Source: a virus | Virus genome (UHGV): UHGV-0307316 | Direction: 5' to 3' (one strand) | DNA: 64,000 bases | Shown: piece by piece, positions 22,988 to 61,908 of the stretch | Numbering within the stretch: position 1 is the first letter of the stretch | Layout of the letters: each line of letters starts with the position of its first letter | Notes under the pieces: generated by a model | The model's input: only the letters and a program-made list of their open reading frames with translations | Told to the model about the DNA's origin: nothing | Database searches by the model: none | Made by a program: the position numbers and the translations under genes

Positions 22988-23359
22988 ATGAAGTGGCTAG
23001 AGGAAGCTTTTAAAAATAATATTGGTGCAATTGTAGTTGGTATTTTTAGTGTTATTGGGATGTATACCACCATGCAAGTTTCAAGTGGTAAACAAGAAGT
23101 GTCTGTCACAACAAAGTTACAGCAGCTAGATAATTATTCAAAAAGTAACTATTCAGCTATTCATGATTTACAGTCTGACATGAGATTGATTCAGCTAGGG
23201 ATGGAGAACCAGAAAGTTCAGTTAGAGAATGTTAAGGGCGAAAACGCAAAACTTACCAAAACTCTTGATAAATTCTCTGACAGTGTAAATAATCTGGCTC
23301 AATCAGTATCAGCCCTCCAAGCTATTACTGAGAAGAACACAAAGAATACTGAAAAATAA
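22988..23359 (+). CDS. Membrane-anchored coiled-coil protein (function unknown)
   Basis: N-terminal TM helix (IGAIVVGIFSVIGMY) then coiled-coil-like sequence; last gene of + block 1. Confidence 0.3.
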   Translation: MKWLEEAFKNNIGAIVVGIFSVIGMYTTMQVSSGKQEVSVTTKLQQLDNYSKSNYSAIHDLQSDMRLIQLGMENQKVQLENVKGENAKLTKTLDKFSDSVNNLAQSVSALQAITEKNTKNTEK

Positions 23360-23396: not shown

Positions 23397-24295
23397 TACT
23401 TACCTACTGACAGAGGTGCTTCAATCTTCCCTGCATGTTGGTAGTTGTTAATGCCACCAATAAAATCACTTGCAGTGAGATGTTTTAGGTCACTTAAAGT
23501 GTTAAGTGGGATACCAATCTCAAAAGTTGGTGCATGGAACTCTTCATTGTTCATCAGTTCATAAACCTGCTTCATATGGTTCTGATAAATCTGAGTATCT
23601 CCAAAGACACCTATCAAATATCGTGGAGTGTATCCAGTCATCTTACAAAGGACTTCCAGAATAAAACCATAAGATGCAATGTTAAACGGAAGCCCTAAAA
23701 AGGTGTCTACAGAACGCTGATACCATTGTAAGTCAACTTCACCCTCGTTGGTGATATAAATCTGAAACAGAACATGACAAGGTGCTAAAGCCATTGAGTT
23801 TGCTGCAATATCTGCTGCATTCCAAGCGTTAACAAGCATGTAACGGTCTGTGATATCACCCTTCATCTTCGCTACTAAGGTCTCTAACTGGTCTACAACA
23901 CAACCATCATGACCCTCAAAGTTTCTCCACTGAACCCCGTAGATTCTACCACCTGCATCCTCTAACCAGTCTTGTTCAGAGGAATAATTAGAGCTTAACC
24001 AGCGTTTAAAATCATCTGACCAGATAGTCCAGCGTTCCCCATCATTTTCACCCCAAGTACGGTAACGAAGTTCACCAAGTTTATTCTCACCATTCAGGAA
24101 CCATAAAGCTTCCCCAATAACTTGCCGTGTAAACACCTGTTTAGATGTTAAGAGTGGGAAACCAGTTCGCATATCAAAACGAAACTGTGGTGGAGCAAAT
24201 GCAGAGATAACCTCTCCAGTTCGTGTAGTACGCAGTTCACCAACGGATAAAACATGGTTCAGGATATTTTTGTAACTCAAATCAGCTTGTGACAT
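23396..24295 (-). CDS. thyA: Thymidylate synthase
   Basis: N-terminal RTTRTGE motif and active-site PCH (ALAPCHVLFQ) in the translation. Confidence 0.85.
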   Translation of the reverse strand: MSQADLSYKNILNHVLSVGELRTTRTGEVISAFAPPQFRFDMRTGFPLLTSKQVFTRQVIGEALWFLNGENKLGELRYRTWGENDGERWTIWSDDFKRWLSSNYSSEQDWLEDAGGRIYGVQWRNFEGHDGCVVDQLETLVAKMKGDITDRYMLVNAWNAADIAANSMALAPCHVLFQIYITNEGEVDLQWYQRSVDTFLGLPFNIASYGFILEVLCKMTGYTPRYLIGVFGDTQIYQNHMKQVYELMNNEEFHAPTFEIGIPLNTLSDLKHLTASDFIGGINNYQHAGKIEAPLSVGK

Positions 24296-26495: not shown

Positions 26496-26879
26496 TCAAA
26501 TACCTGTGCAGCTTCTGTTTTCTAAGAAATACTCAACACCATACATAGCTTTTTGCATCAAATCTTCTTTAAACTGAATACGATGATTAAGCATAGCCTG
26601 TACATCAATATCATCATGGTGCTTCTCTTTAATATTTGCAGATTGCAGGAAATACTCTGCAAGAACACGATACTGATAGTCAGTTACCTTGTCAGTCATC
26701 TCTGTTAAAGACTCTTCAGAGATTGGTTTAAGTAACTCACCATTAGCCAAAGCAACACCTTTAACAATCTGACAAGTGTCTTCTGGAACACCTGATAAGT
26801 CCACATTTGGAAGTTCTGTTGCATTGACTGGTAAATTCATTGCCATAACCATTGCAGCAGCTAATAAAATCTTTTTCAT
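26496..26879 (-). CDS. Secreted/periplasmic protein (signal peptide)
   Basis: N-terminus MKKILLAAAMVMAMNLPVNA with A-x-A cleavage-type site. Confidence 0.45.
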   Translation of the reverse strand: MKKILLAAAMVMAMNLPVNATELPNVDLSGVPEDTCQIVKGVALANGELLKPISEESLTEMTDKVTDYQYRVLAEYFLQSANIKEKHHDDIDVQAMLNHRIQFKEDLMQKAMYGVEYFLENRSCTGI

Positions 26880-28830: not shown

Positions 28831-29967
28831 TTATTCGTAGTCTCGAATAACGAGACCAACAGGGAACTGTAAAGAACCCTTACGAGTCATCTTCTGGAAC
28901 TGAACCGTTAAAGGTTTCCCGATAAACTCTTCAGGATGCTCAGCAAGATACTGTTTCTTCTCGTGTGTAGTTTTCCATGAAACATCTACAAAGACGTTAG
29001 GAAGAGTCTCTACAACGAACTTACCATGACCACGCTTATCAGTCTTTACACCAGTCACTTTAAACTCTTCAGTGTGCATCTTCTTGTGCTTAATCAAGAA
29101 GTATGAACGGTGACCACACTCATAGAAAGATTCTTCAGAGATTGAACGGTACATTGCACCTTCAAACTTAGCTTCAACCCACTTATCATGAGCTTCATCA
29201 AACTCTTCCCAAGAATTTACACGGATAGTCTGTACAGGAACAACTCTACAGGTATCCCCAAGCTCAACAATAGGTGAGTTATCAATAACTTCACGACGCT
29301 CAGGCCAAGATTTTGAATTGTCACAGATATCATACCAGTAGAATTTAAGAAGGTGACGGTCTGGATTGTCAGCATTCTTAATCATAGATACAATATCTTC
29401 TAAGTCCCAACCATGAGCATAAATCTCTCCGTCAAAGTCTTCAACTTGCGGATGTAATTTAAGCAACAAAAGCAAATCTGGGATTAGTTCTGTTGGAACG
29501 TTGTAAACAGTATTCTCACGAGAATAAGCTGTGAAACTGACTGAATCAGCATCTCTTGAGATTCTACAACGTACACCATCAAGTTTTGGTTGAGCATCAG
29601 CAGGGAACTTCAGATACTTTGCATGACTAACCTTTGCAGCATCATGAGCAAGCTGTACACCTACCTTCTCAGTATTCTGTGCAGACTCTTTTGTGTAAGC
29701 ATAACCTTTACGGTCAACTTGCTTTTTATACTTAGCAGCAACTTCAAAGAGAGCTTGCTGTTCAGCGTTACGCTCATTCTTTTTACCGATGTTCTTAGGC
29801 TCTGCTGTATACTCTTCAAACATCATCTTGCCATTCTCTTTACCATAGGTTGTAATAACTTTGTCACCTACAGCAACACATGACCAGACGTTGAAGGAAC
29901 CATCTTTATTTTGTTTGTACAGAATTGTCATTTTTAACCTCTGAGTGATACCAAGTATTGCAAGCAT
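28831..29967 (-). CDS. ATP-dependent DNA ligase
   Basis: Adenylation motif I KLDGVRC (KxDGxR) in the translation; size as for T7-type ligases. Confidence 0.8.
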   Translation of the reverse strand: MLAILGITQRLKMTILYKQNKDGSFNVWSCVAVGDKVITTYGKENGKMMFEEYTAEPKNIGKKNERNAEQQALFEVAAKYKKQVDRKGYAYTKESAQNTEKVGVQLAHDAAKVSHAKYLKFPADAQPKLDGVRCRISRDADSVSFTAYSRENTVYNVPTELIPDLLLLLKLHPQVEDFDGEIYAHGWDLEDIVSMIKNADNPDRHLLKFYWYDICDNSKSWPERREVIDNSPIVELGDTCRVVPVQTIRVNSWEEFDEAHDKWVEAKFEGAMYRSISEESFYECGHRSYFLIKHKKMHTEEFKVTGVKTDKRGHGKFVVETLPNVFVDVSWKTTHEKKQYLAEHPEEFIGKPLTVQFQKMTRKGSLQFPVGLVIRDYE

Positions 29968-30124
29968 TACATGCGTAAAGCTCTAAGTCATTTTTATCTG
30001 GTTTGTGGAAACAGTTTGACCCACAACGACACCGGAATAGCTTACCATCAACACGAAGAATGAATGTTTCAAGCTCACCATCTTCTGTAAGAACTGCGTT
30101 CTTAAATTTATCTTCTACAGTCAT
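29906..30124 (-). CDS. Zinc-finger small protein (hypothetical)
   Basis: CRCGSNC ... CNACN cysteine pairs. Confidence 0.35.
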   Translation of the reverse strand: MTVEDKFKNAVLTEDGELETFILRVDGKLFRCRCGSNCFHKPDKNDLELYACNACNTWYHSEVKNDNSVQTK

Positions 30125-30337: not shown

Positions 30338-30607
30338 TCACTCAATAACCGTAGTGTGTGATTGACCATTTTTGCCATAGCTATAAGATGTTGTTGTTTG
30401 GGAGTTTGGACATCTGACAACAACAATATCTCTGCTTATAGCATCACCATGTAACTTGTATACTCTGCAATCTTGCATCTCTGGTGGGAGACTGTAAGAA
30501 GCATTTTTATCTTCATAAGAAGGGTTGCAGCCAGATAGAAAAACAACACCAAGCGCAATTACTGCTTTCCACATAATACTTCCCCAGAGACTGTACATTT
30601 TCTTCAT
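30338..30607 (-). CDS. Small lipoprotein (candidate superinfection-exclusion / receptor-masking protein)
   Basis: Signal peptide with lipobox (VVFLSGC); short mature domain with an additional Cys. Confidence 0.5.
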   Translation of the reverse strand: MKKMYSLWGSIMWKAVIALGVVFLSGCNPSYEDKNASYSLPPEMQDCRVYKLHGDAISRDIVVVRCPNSQTTTSYSYGKNGQSHTTVIE

Positions 30608-31079: not shown

Positions 31080-31595
31080 TCAACTTAGTTTTGCAAACTC
31101 TCCGTGGAGTTTTACAGCAGCTTCACAGTAAGCTTTATGGGCTTCTTCTTCCGTTGTGTATGTTCCTATATGTATAGTCTTACCATTATGGTTAATCTGG
31201 GCTACCCACTTACCAGACTTGCTTCTACTTGTGCCTTTTAAGTTTTTTGATGTTCTAGGTTGTCTCCTATTAGACATGTTCTGTTCTTTTGTGGCCTCTC
31301 TTAAATTGTTCCAAGCGTTATTCAAGCCATCTCCATCTTTGTGGTCAATGTGTTTATCAGGCCACTTGCCTGTCATCCAGAACCAAGCAATTCGGTGATT
31401 ACCTGTCCTGTATCCTAAAATCTGTGTGTGCATATACACACCAGACCTTGTGCGCTTAATTGCTCCGGCTTGGCTTCCAATAACCACCCTACTACTATGT
31501 GGAGGTCTACCAATCCATGTTAAGACCCCTGTTTCGGGGTCATAATCTAACCAAGACTTTAACTGTTCATGTGTGAATCCACAATCTCTCATCAA
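31080..31595 (-). CDS. HNH homing endonuclease with AP2-type DNA-binding domain
   Basis: HNH core IDHKDGDGLNNAWNNLREATKEQN; C-terminal AP2-like segment SKSGKWVAQINHNGKTIHIGTYTTEEEAHKAY; start abuts DNA polymerase stop. Confidence 0.7.
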   Translation of the reverse strand: MMRDCGFTHEQLKSWLDYDPETGVLTWIGRPPHSSRVVIGSQAGAIKRTRSGVYMHTQILGYRTGNHRIAWFWMTGKWPDKHIDHKDGDGLNNAWNNLREATKEQNMSNRRQPRTSKNLKGTSRSKSGKWVAQINHNGKTIHIGTYTTEEEAHKAYCEAAVKLHGEFAKLS

Positions 31596-34321
31596 TGTAC
31601 CTCATACCAGCTCTTACCAACCTTACCTGTGCCAGTTACAAGCGTCTCACTCTTCAAACCTAAATTCTTAGATGCCTGACCATACATCCAGTCAGTTATG
31701 GCTTTAACTTCTTGAGTCATACTTTCTGGGCATTCCCAACTGTTTTCATCGTGGTATGCCAGCAAAAGCCTAGCACCGATTGCTGGTTTTCGTCCATTTA
31801 ATTTTGTCAATCCTTCTTCACATGCTCTTCTACAAGCAAGATTAATTGCCTCATTTTGAATCTGAGCCTCTGAACCCATGAGCAAATAATTCAATAACTT
31901 ATGTGGAGATTTACACCACAACCAAGCTCCAGCAACCTTTACAAAACCACCTTTAGAGATTGCAGCAGTCTTACCAAATACCTCTTCAAGTGCCTTTTTA
32001 GTTGCTTTGTAGTCAGCTTCCAAGTCATCTAGCAGCTTTTTAATTTTAGGCAAACGAATAAAGTAAGTCTGTTTAGTCAGCGCACCTTCCTGAGTAGTTG
32101 CAGCTTTAATCGTCTTAGCAAACTTCTCATCACCTGCACCGAACAGCAGTGCATAGATACCATTCTTAGCTTTCTTACGACCCTTGCTAATCTCATGAAG
32201 AAGATTCTCATCCTGAGTAGCTCGACAAGTCAAGATGTCCTGCTCATCGTTCAAGTTAAAGTAAATACTGTTCAGTGTATGTGCATCAGTCCCTGAATAG
32301 ACAACGTACAGGTCATTCTCAGAGTCATAGCGAAGGTACTTATCAATCTCTGGGTTGAGGTACTCATCAAAGTGTTTACAGTAATAGCGTCCATCTTCTT
32401 GACGAATGAACTCAATTTCTTCTTTACCTTGCGTTACCGCTTTGGTGAAGTCTTTATCACCCATAAAGTTACAAAGAAGAACTAGCTGGGCTGAGTTCAT
32501 GTCTACAGAGACAACGTTAGTACCTTCCTCACAAATCCACACTGCCCTCATTGGTTCCCCATAGACAGCAGCACCAGACGGTACGTTTACAATACCATAC
32601 TGTGTCATACGTCCAGTTGAAGTACCAAACACCATTGCACCAGCACTAAGGCGACCATCAGGACGAATCTGGTTCAACCAACCTTTTTCATCATCCTTTG
32701 AGTTCTCAATAGTTCTGCGTCGGTGCATCAAAGTGTAGTATTTAGCAATCTTCTGTCCAAGCTCACCTTCAATCGTATCGTAAGATGATTCAGTAAGTTT
32801 TGGTGAAGTACGGATTAAGCAAGGCTCAAGCAAATCTGTGTACTTCTTCACAGACCAGTTATGCTCAATGTACTGGACGCCTTCGTGTTCAACATAACTC
32901 AAACCACACCGCTCAACCATTTCCTGCCACTTAGGATGCTTTGTAATCATCTTTTTATTGTCTTTGAAACGACAAACTTTGACAGGGCGACCATCAGAGT
33001 CTTTCTTGTAGTTCCAGTCATCTGGAATCCAACCAACTGATTTCAAGTAGTCTTTAACAACTGCTACCTGAGTCATACGAGAAACTTCAAACTCAATTGG
33101 TGTATATGGTGCATCAATCAAACCTGTGTAGCGACTTGACTCAAGTTCAAAGTGGTTAACAACGTGGCTGTTATAGTACTTCACAGTTTTGACTGTTTTT
33201 ACTGGCTTCCAGTCTTTGCATTTCTTACCAATCTTTGCGTTCAACTCATTGCAAATTGCACGAGCATCCTTCATTGCTACAAAGCCTTCCTTGTACTCTT
33301 CACCAGTTACAGAGTTGGTTGGTGTATAGCAATTCCTTTTTTCAATGTTAAAAATCTTTGTAGTTGGCTTACCAAATGGTTTGATTTCGTATGTCTGCAT
33401 CTCGCCATTACGTACCTGCTGACGATACTTTGTCTTAGGGTACTTGGTAATTCTTTTCAGTCCATCTGCATGACCAAATGTTTCAACATACTCATTCCAA
33501 GCTTTTGCAAACTCTTCTCCAGTGACTTTACCTTTGGTCTTAATAGTTGGAGGTAGATGTGGTTCAACCTCTGAAGCAAGCTCATTAGTCAACTTGTCAA
33601 GTTCCTTTACATGGAACTCCATAAGCTCTTTATCAGCTTTCCAACCATTGATAGCTTGTTGACTCATCCAGAAAGATGTTTCTTTAGCTCGCATGTAGGT
33701 TTCATAAGTGTCTATGCCACACTTCTTAAGCTTGAGATACTCATTATCAAGTGCCCGTTTAGTTTTGGCGTTAATACGGATATCTTCTACAACACGAGTG
33801 AAGATTTCTGCATTCCACACACCCCAATGTTCAATCTCTGGTTTACGAACACCAACACGAGCACCCCATGCAGCCAAGCCATGAGCACCTTTATAACCCT
33901 TTGGAGTTGGTCTATCCATCCACTGAACACGAGACTGGATAAGAGAATCCTGAAAGAAATTACTCCACGGCTTACACTTTGGATTATCAAAGTTCCATAA
34001 ATCCGGTGCAATGTGATTGAAAACCCACCAGTCATAACCTAGACCATTATGAATGCAAAGACGTTTTGCCTTTAACGCAAACTCAATACCTTCACGTAAG
34101 CCACCCTTAATGTACTTGGTATACTTGTGACCGAGGATAGGCTCATCTGTAAAGACCCATACAGGTGGCTCTTCATCGTCAGATTTATAGTCTGCGAAAG
34201 CCATTACGTGCACTTTAGTGAACTCAAGGAGTAAACCATCAGTTTCTGTATCACCAACTAAATGTAAGTTTTTAAAATCTACGTTTTCCATTTTTACTCC
34301 CTCTAAAATCATTAACCTCAT
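31592..34321 (-). CDS. DNA polymerase, family A (T7 gp5-like) with 3'-5' exonuclease domain
   Basis: Exo I VGDTETDGL; Pol motif A VSVDMNSAQLVLL; motif B KKAKNGIYALLFGAG; motif C AYHDE. Confidence 0.9.
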   Translation of the reverse strand: MRLMILEGVKMENVDFKNLHLVGDTETDGLLLEFTKVHVMAFADYKSDDEEPPVWVFTDEPILGHKYTKYIKGGLREGIEFALKAKRLCIHNGLGYDWWVFNHIAPDLWNFDNPKCKPWSNFFQDSLIQSRVQWMDRPTPKGYKGAHGLAAWGARVGVRKPEIEHWGVWNAEIFTRVVEDIRINAKTKRALDNEYLKLKKCGIDTYETYMRAKETSFWMSQQAINGWKADKELMEFHVKELDKLTNELASEVEPHLPPTIKTKGKVTGEEFAKAWNEYVETFGHADGLKRITKYPKTKYRQQVRNGEMQTYEIKPFGKPTTKIFNIEKRNCYTPTNSVTGEEYKEGFVAMKDARAICNELNAKIGKKCKDWKPVKTVKTVKYYNSHVVNHFELESSRYTGLIDAPYTPIEFEVSRMTQVAVVKDYLKSVGWIPDDWNYKKDSDGRPVKVCRFKDNKKMITKHPKWQEMVERCGLSYVEHEGVQYIEHNWSVKKYTDLLEPCLIRTSPKLTESSYDTIEGELGQKIAKYYTLMHRRRTIENSKDDEKGWLNQIRPDGRLSAGAMVFGTSTGRMTQYGIVNVPSGAAVYGEPMRAVWICEEGTNVVSVDMNSAQLVLLCNFMGDKDFTKAVTQGKEEIEFIRQEDGRYYCKHFDEYLNPEIDKYLRYDSENDLYVVYSGTDAHTLNSIYFNLNDEQDILTCRATQDENLLHEISKGRKKAKNGIYALLFGAGDEKFAKTIKAATTQEGALTKQTYFIRLPKIKKLLDDLEADYKATKKALEEVFGKTAAISKGGFVKVAGAWLWCKSPHKLLNYLLMGSEAQIQNEAINLACRRACEEGLTKLNGRKPAIGARLLLAYHDENSWECPESMTQEVKAITDWMYGQASKNLGLKSETLVTGTGKVGKSWYEVH

Positions 34322-61397: not shown

Positions 61398-61745
61398 ATG
61401 ACATTTAAAGAGTTCTGTCAAGCTACTTTCATAATTGTTTTCTTAGTTGGGGCAGGTGTCTGGGGAGGATACTCTTACAGAGACTATCAAGTTGCTGAAG
61501 TTGAGCTAAATAATGAGAAACTAATAAGTGTTGCCAAAGATGCTTATCAGGAAGGTTTAGCCACACTGAGCACCAATTACAAAAATGATTTGAAAGATGT
61601 GCTTGCTAAGAATAAGCATACAAAAGAGGTACTAACGTATGAAAAGACTAAGCCAGAGTTTTATAATGTTTGTGTTACTGATAATTATGTCAGGGTGTTC
61701 AACGAACAAAGTGAGCAGTACATTCAAAAACTCCCAAGTAAGTGA
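61398..61745 (+). CDS. i-spanin (Rz-like, putative)
   Basis: N-terminal TM helix (FIIVFLVGAGVWGGY) then coiled-coil periplasmic domain; lipoprotein ORF begins inside its 3' end. Confidence 0.5.
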   Translation: MTFKEFCQATFIIVFLVGAGVWGGYSYRDYQVAEVELNNEKLISVAKDAYQEGLATLSTNYKNDLKDVLAKNKHTKEVLTYEKTKPEFYNVCVTDNYVRVFNEQSEQYIQKLPSK

Positions 61746-61908
61746 GAGTGATAAGTACACTCAAGAAGAATCACGGTATATCATCAAAGGCAACACAGGC
61801 AGCGATGTAGCAGCAGCCCTTGAGTTCTATCGTGACGGCTTTTACCAGTGCACAATCAAAGCTAACAACCTTATTGACATGATTTTATTAGGGAATAAGC
61901 AGCAATGA
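61639..61908 (+). CDS. o-spanin (Rz1-like lipoprotein, putative), overlapping the i-spanin gene out of frame
   Basis: Signal peptide with lipobox (LLIIMSGC); starts within 61398-61745 in a different frame. Confidence 0.5.
   Translation: MKRLSQSFIMFVLLIIMSGCSTNKVSSTFKNSQVSESDKYTQEESRYIIKGNTGSDVAAALEFYRDGFYQCTIKANNLIDMILLGNKQQ

Follow-up and report, generated by a model that had tools for sequence, protein, structure and literature searches.

A DUF4884-family lipoprotein encoded in the replication block of a Felixounavirus: a candidate envelope effector distinct from T5 Llp

To our knowledge, phage proteins that are exported before lysis have been little studied, and the described cases are mainly T5 Llp, Cor, and the Imm and Sp proteins of T4. 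The targets of such proteins expose weak points of the Gram-negative envelope. Of the T4 proteins, Imm is integral to the inner membrane, and Sp is helical and soluble in the periplasm; among the phage lipoproteins that act in lysis, the o-spanins typically carry a proline-rich segment. In T5, the llp gene divergently adjoins the receptor-binding gene oad (pb5), and the Cor cassette has been described as tracking the FhuA or BtuB receptor (PMC13164509).

The present work concerns a small lipoprotein gene in UHGV virus genome UHGV-0307316, analysed over a stretch of 64,000 nucleotides (the window). A preliminary description of this DNA had regarded the product as a candidate superinfection-exclusion factor that, in the manner of T5 Llp, masks the phage's own receptor. 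We find that the sequence family is already catalogued (DUF4884/phrog_902) and that the protein, a lipoprotein of the envelope, has no relationship with Llp/Cor, Rz1, Imm or Sp.

Genomic setting and start of the lipoprotein gene

The window is from a Felixounavirus, a Felix O1-like myovirus. The 3-kb stretch around the lipoprotein gene shares 96% identity with Salmonella phage DaR-2019a and about 88-96% identity with the best-matching Felixounavirus genomes. The gene map was obtained by placing the proteins of phage vB_Si_35FD on the window (Table 1), and it agrees with the earlier statement that the gene lies among replication-associated genes: the minus-strand block runs from thyA through the ligase gene to the HNH endonuclease and DNA polymerase genes, and the lipoprotein gene, co-directional with this DNA-metabolism block, has the DNA polymerase gene on one side and the DNA ligase gene on the other. 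Judged solely by this position, the lipoprotein would be expressed early or in the middle of infection. An insertion, the homing endonuclease gene, separates the DNA polymerase gene from the small-gene cluster. The ORF of the zinc-ribbon-like protein overlaps the region in which the DNA ligase gene is annotated to start, and its product is labelled "DNA ligase" in phage Andreotti, yet it belongs to a separate PHROG.

Table 1 Features of the window referred to in the text, with positions, strands and the basis of each assignment.
Feature	Position	Strand	Basis or remark
Terminase and structural genes	about 1 to 22.9 kb	+	vB_Si_35FD protein mapping
Tail fibre	about 19.1-20.2 kb	opposite to lipoprotein gene	vB_Si_35FD protein mapping
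Holin	22988-23356		vB_Si_35FD protein mapping
thyA	23399-24295	-	first gene of the minus-strand block
Second exported protein, 127 aa	26496-26879	-	classical Sec signal peptide; phrog_4332
DNA ligase	28831-29967	-	
72-aa protein, CxC...CxxC spacing, zinc-ribbon-like	29906-30124	-	phrog_5768
Lipoprotein, longest ORF (89 aa + stop)	30338-30607	-	ATG overlaps the stop of the upstream gene (ATGA)
Lipoprotein, canonical ORF (78 aa, starts MWK)	30338-30574	-	form found in most Felixounaviruses
N-terminal extension, 11 codons (MKKMYSLWGSI)	30575-30607	-	DNA alignment, ORF lists
Core signal peptide MWKAVIALGVVFLSG	30530-30574	-	ends in the lipobox
Lipobox L-S-G-C	30527-30538	-	Cys codon 30527-30529
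Mature lipoprotein, 63 aa	30341-30529	-	alignments, AlphaFold2 model, dN/dS
HNH + AP2-domain homing endonuclease	31080-31595	-	HNH_3 E=7e-14, AP2 E=1.6e-9
DNA polymerase	31592-34321	-	
i-spanin, 115 aa, N-terminal TMD	61398-61745	+	phrog_1152 "Rz-like spanin", E=1.5e-41
o-spanin, 89-aa lipoprotein MKRLSQSFIMFVLLIIMSGC...	61639-61908	+	lipobox; starts inside the 3' end of the i-spanin gene

The 89-aa lipoprotein ORF is present exactly as the preliminary description had it (MKKMYSLWGSIMWKAVIALGVVFLSGC followed by NPSYEDKNASYSLPPEMQDCRVYKLHGDAISRDIVVVRCPNSQTTTSYSYGKNGQSHTTVIE). Its signal peptide combines an n-region of positive charge with a hydrophobic h-region and ends in the lipobox L-S-G-C, and a regular-expression search of all six frames found only one further lipobox ORF in the 64 kb, that of the o-spanin. 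The 89-aa ORF is 100% identical to a hypothetical protein of the E. coli phage vB_EcoM_LMP34. DNA alignment with phages Andreotti and vB_Si_35FD (comparison segments L001 4589-4735 and L007 26639-26794) revealed a 127-bp deletion in the window. In these two phages an ORF of its own, 48-51 aa long (MKKMYSLWG...), separates the lipoprotein gene from the 77-aa gene upstream; the deleted segment comprises most of this ORF, the first codons of which (MKKMYSLWG) are now in frame with the lipoprotein gene. The same deletion-derived, extended reading is found in phage LMP34. Because most homologues start with MWK (78 aa) and the deletion fused upstream codons to the gene, the ATG at 30574, which is preceded by the Shine-Dalgarno-like GGGGAAG, is the canonical start; the additional codons of the 89-aa reading lengthen the signal peptide and stem from the fusion. 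The mature protein would be the same from either start after cleavage by signal peptidase II. The deletion is apparently bounded by short similar sequences (GGAAGG / GAAGTA), and the segment immediately upstream of the lipoprotein gene is variable, with at least four N-terminal contexts among the IMG/VR alleles.

A second exported protein had also been noted in this block, and this too is borne out: the product of the gene at 26496-26879 (MKKILLAAAMVMAMNLPVNA followed by TE...) has a predicted cleavage site after VNA and a Cys near both ends of its mature part. Searches of Pfam and of PDB sequences revealed no relatives of this protein, which could be another periplasmic early effector.

Family membership, conservation and genomic neighbourhoods

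The lipoprotein matches phrog_902 (E=7e-17, residues 11-87), and PF16225 (DUF4884) is the precomputed label of its homologues P0001 (93% identical) and P0002 (100% identical in the mature domain). All close and distant homologues carry the PF16225 label, the contig-level labels being unmarked, which means E<=1e-5. These precomputed labels are the basis of the Pfam membership; hmmscan against Pfam never returned PF16225, even for clear members (E<=10 or E<=1), and the model is apparently absent there. The window protein shares the pattern of DUF4884/phrog_902, i.e. the lipobox, the tether, (Y/F)xLPxxLKDCKxY, VVRCPNSxT and GK, and by its sequence it belongs to this family of small lipoproteins.

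A first protein search returned 13 close relatives. A profile built from ten diverse mature domains recovered 290 clusters at 90% identity, and a HMMER search of 1.84 billion cluster representatives recovered at least 1184 clusters at 50% identity with E<=1e-3 (653 at E<=1e-10). By tblastn, homologues were found in 586 of 50,697 phage records. The carriers belong to many unrelated groups and are mostly large virulent phages with hosts in Enterobacterales, Vibrio, Aeromonas and Acinetobacter, and they include essentially all Felixounaviruses (among them the Felix O1 derivative FO1a, gp90), about 295 Vibrio phages of the T5-like Demerecviridae, Aeromonas phages of the genus Plateaulakevirus, jumbo phages of Eneladusvirus/Asteriusvirus (Serratia BF, Yersinia fHe-Yen9-03 and E. 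coli PBECO4/121Q), Acinetobacter phages of the genera Saclayvirus and Obolenskvirus, and rV5-like phages of the Vequintavirinae. Between phages of different families and bacterial orders the identity is kept at 33-55%. Weak BFVD structure matches (E about 0.02) led to lipoproteins of Aeromonas phages Aeh1 and phiAS5, which we take to be T4-like. In 5,426 complete E. coli genomes blastn found no homologue, and the search of 185,579 species genomes with one motif pattern gave no confirmed relative; both results fit a function tied to lytic infection. Two partial matches are located in Acinetobacter plasmids of 113-115 kb. Neither the protein nor the family profile had a meaningful match in Pfam-A, NCBIfam or the PDB sequences, the weak TrbK, InsA zinc-ribbon and SIR2_2 matches being below cutoff or within the signal peptide only. 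In the literature on DUF4884, PF16225, Felixounavirus/Ounavirinae lipoproteins and phage exclusion lipoproteins we found no functional study of the family.

The mature protein starts with Cys1, the putative site of lipidation, and an Asn at +2; a tether of about 10 aa then leads to a small predicted beta domain. In the AlphaFold2 model (five strands, pLDDT 74) this domain of about 50 aa is predicted to be beta-rich, with two conserved Cys residues flanking a predicted hairpin; the overall confidence of the model is moderate, and the pLDDT is 53-61 across its C-terminal third. Alignments showed that the lipid Cys and the first internal Cys (Cys21) are invariant, that P15, D20, V38-R39-C40-P41, S43 and G52-K53 (mature numbering) are near-invariant, and that the VVRCPNS motif is invariant or near-invariant. 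The lipobox expression matched in 118 of 122 retrieved homologues, the four misses showing a visible lipobox too, and 108 of 118 homologues have exactly two extra Cys residues. All 22 IMG/VR alleles are intact. The pooled Nei-Gojobori dN/dS over 21 Felixounavirus alleles was 0.12 in the mature part (63 codons) and 0.55 in the signal peptide, and the mature domain is under strong purifying selection. The homologue clusters, the conserved lipobox and Cys residues, the intact IMG/VR alleles and the low dN/dS identify a real gene and not a chance ORF. In two metagenomic alleles (P0012 and P0013) the frame shifts past about residue 45, and what follows is an unrelated tail (...CCCQMSKLSNNNIL); these alleles represent either sporadic pseudogenes or faulty assemblies. 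The idea that the C-terminal TTV(I/V)(E/D) strand resembles a TonB box was set aside, as the pattern is generic for a beta strand.

At every locus inspected, the DUF4884 gene lies among small genes that carry no functional annotation, and at several of these loci DNA-replication or nucleotide-metabolism genes flank the small-gene cluster. The more specific associations are each confined to a lineage. In Acinetobacter phage SHI (ON480525; L013 8001-8670) and in a related metagenomic contig (L014), an Imm-family gene is located two genes downstream; it encodes a 70-aa protein with two transmembrane segments that scores 52 bits on Imm_superinfect (PF14373), where the cutoff is 27.9. Saclayvirus has a PspA/IM30-like gene two genes upstream of the DUF4884 gene, and in Serratia phage BF a gene for a membrane protein with two transmembrane segments overlaps it on the upstream side. 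All-against-all BLAST found no neighbour gene conserved across the six lineages, and membrane proteins within three genes on each side (9 of 54 vs 15 of 141) are not significantly enriched. From the joint presence of DUF4884 and Imm genes, a small cluster of exclusion genes in Obolenskvirus seems possible. The Imm association is limited to one lineage, and phmmer with the SHI Imm protein found no Imm homologue in the window or at the other loci.

Receptor masking, lysis, host takeover and gene decay as alternative explanations

The idea that the lipoprotein masks the phage's own receptor in the way of T5 Llp did not survive the comparison, in which the profile, the fold, the gene position, the distribution and the use of LPS are all contrary. 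A protein of the Llp/Cor type would attach to a receptor protein of the outer membrane from the periplasmic side and so prevent, by an allosteric effect, the adsorption of the phage itself or of FhuA/BtuB-type competitors. Such a role would suit a small lipoprotein similar in size to Llp, with a putative disulfide and a type II signal peptide in which the lipobox is followed by a residue other than Asp (LSGC followed by N), as in the sorting of Llp and Cor; by the +2 rule, the protein would probably be sorted to the outer membrane. Two sequence comparisons also point this way: hhalign against Llp returned a probability of 73%, which is limited to the signal peptide and another 12 residues (P..KDC..Y), and one member of the DUF4884 family has a weak match to phrog_1119 (E=0.004). 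However, the lipoprotein of the window did not match phrog_1119, the Cor superinfection exclusion protein, at E<=0.01, whereas T5 Llp, used as the control and confirmed against PDB 8A60_B and 7QJF, did so with E=1.1e-19. The family profile retrieved no Llp chain from the PDB sequences at E<=10, and the predicted structure of the lipoprotein had no match to the Llp fold (8A60_B or 7QJF). While llp neighbours a receptor-binding gene, the lipoprotein gene is 8-10 kb away from the tail-fibre genes, on the opposite strand and inside the replication block, and at no inspected locus does a DUF4884 gene stand beside an annotated tail-fibre or receptor-binding gene. A search for diverse members of the Cor/Llp family yielded only four close homologues of Llp. 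True Llp was found by tblastn in only 34 phage records, all with at least 90% identity, whereas DUF4884 is conserved in phages with quite different receptors, and selection on the lipoprotein is purifying, not diversifying. Moreover, the reported target of Felixounaviruses is LPS, with no protein receptor (PMC8594841). From the periplasmic leaflet, where it would sit, the lipoprotein could not cover LPS. The DUF4884 lipoprotein is unrelated to T5 Llp and the analogy is wrong in its specifics; a mechanism of the Llp/Cor type is thus unlikely.

A small, putative outer-membrane lipoprotein with Cys residues also recalls the Rz1-type o-spanins and could be thought of as a lysis protein, either a second o-spanin or a regulator of spanin/holin function. 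The window, however, already encodes an overlapping i-spanin/o-spanin pair (Table 1), the neighbours of the lipoprotein gene have no transmembrane domain and thus offer no adjacent membrane-anchored partner, and the protein has no spanin PHROG match. The gene is in the replication block, and the mature part is a conserved, predicted beta domain with only four prolines. We consider a role in lysis very improbable, and the o-spanin identity itself was rejected for 30338-30607 in view of the genuine overlapping pair at 61398-61908. In GenBank MZ327261 (vB_Si_35FD) the labels "i-spanin" and "o-spanin" are on the wrong ORFs: one of these starts with GTG and is a fragment of the o-spanin frame, and the other is the next gene, the product of which is without TMD or lipobox. 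Still further down the scale is the view that the ORF is spurious or a decaying gene without function. The frameshifts in P0012 and P0013 would fit it, as would the fact that the gene is unannotated or "hypothetical" in many deposited genomes, but hundreds of intact homologues across phage families, the invariance of the lipobox and the Cys pair and the dN/dS of 0.12 effectively refute it, and we give it next to no credence. A role in envelope maintenance or host takeover is of another order and deserves to be taken seriously, even if it is on the whole doubtful. Here the lipoprotein would inhibit or sequester a conserved host factor of the periplasm or the outer membrane, candidates being a peptidoglycan hydrolase or its lipoprotein activator, an RcsF-type stress sensor, Tol-Pal, Bam/Lpt, or a periplasmic nuclease or protease, and would thereby preserve the envelope, or suppress host responses triggered from it, up to the time of programmed lysis. 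The broad range of hosts and phages, the purifying selection on the mature codons and the short tether are consistent with this role, as are the PspA/IM30-like gene nearby in Saclayvirus and the absence of the gene from E. coli chromosomes; what speaks against it is that Pfam, NCBIfam, PDB sequence and fold searches found no similarity to known inhibitors, among them Ivy, MliC/PliC and Spackle.

Proposed action in the periplasm and comparison with known systems

The reading that we favour, tentatively and as a possibility short of being probable, is that the DUF4884 lipoprotein is a receptor-independent effector of the periplasm, which either excludes other phages after their adsorption or protects the envelope. 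The precursor would be exported by Sec, acylated (Lgt, Lnt) and cleaved by signal peptidase II (LspA). With Asn as the residue at +2, the Lol system would, by the +2 rule, deliver the product to the outer membrane, on its periplasmic leaflet. A disulfide between Cys21 and Cys40 would be formed by DsbA. Held on a tether of about 10 residues, the domain might bind an envelope component that is conserved in Gammaproteobacteria and is not the LPS receptor; such binding might in turn change the envelope of the infected cell, and its likeliest effect, if we may speculate so far, would be to block secondary phages at a step after adsorption, for example tail-tip penetration or genome entry. The wide host range together with the strong purifying selection points to a conserved envelope partner and not to a variable receptor, and the dN/dS of the mature codons, compared with that of the signal peptide, argues for a constrained interaction with such a partner and not for an arms race over a receptor. 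The Imm-family neighbour in one lineage of Acinetobacter phages is a weak hint of an exclusion role. Asp is found at +2 in 13 of 118 family members, such as CDQK in rV5-like E. coli phages; this predicts retention in the inner membrane, so the protein may act elsewhere than at the outer membrane, and the target may be one that can be reached from either membrane.

A more general form of this proposal, which we find conceivable though rather doubtful, is that the DUF4884 proteins are widespread periplasmic effectors of numerous phage families that all bind one conserved machine of the gammaproteobacterial envelope, e.g. a Ton/Tol energy transducer, Bam/Lpt or a peptidoglycan-remodelling lipoprotein. 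If this were true, the outcome would be either the exclusion of secondary phages whatever their receptor or a "lock-down" of the envelope in the course of lytic growth, and the mechanism would have no kinship with Llp/Cor, Imm or Sp in either sequence or fold. In our ranking, exclusion or envelope protection comes before envelope maintenance or host takeover, which is followed by Llp-like masking, a lysis role and finally a spurious ORF, the remainder falling to functions that were not considered.

The family is far more widespread than Llp, by the count of phage records as well as by that of clusters, and, being both large and constrained, it is a good experimental target. Identification of the component to which these proteins bind would explain a gene that is common in therapeutic and biocontrol phages (among them Felix O1-related, rV5-related and Acinetobacter phages) and could reveal whether such phages exclude one another in cocktails.

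Compared with the known systems, the lipoprotein resembles the Rz1-type o-spanins in being a small, putative outer-membrane lipoprotein with conserved Cys residues, but differs from them in that no i-spanin gene stands beside its gene, which is located outside the lysis region. With Llp and Cor it shares the type II signal peptide, the probable location on the periplasmic leaflet of the outer membrane, a mature domain of about 60 aa with one disulfide (predicted here) and synthesis that would precede lysis; it differs from Llp in the spacing of the Cys residues, which is 19 residues in the DUF4884 protein and 47 in Llp, and unlike the narrow set of Llp variants its family spans phages with unrelated receptors. 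The analogy that we propose is with T4 Imm and Sp, since like these the lipoprotein would be an early, exported envelope protein of a virulent myovirus acting independently of the receptor. It has no sequence similarity to either of them (Pfam and PDB sequence searches found no relation to Imm_superinfect or Spackle), and unlike them it is a lipoprotein with a predicted beta-rich domain; in function, however, its proposed action would be nearer to that of T4 Sp/Imm than to that of T5 Llp.
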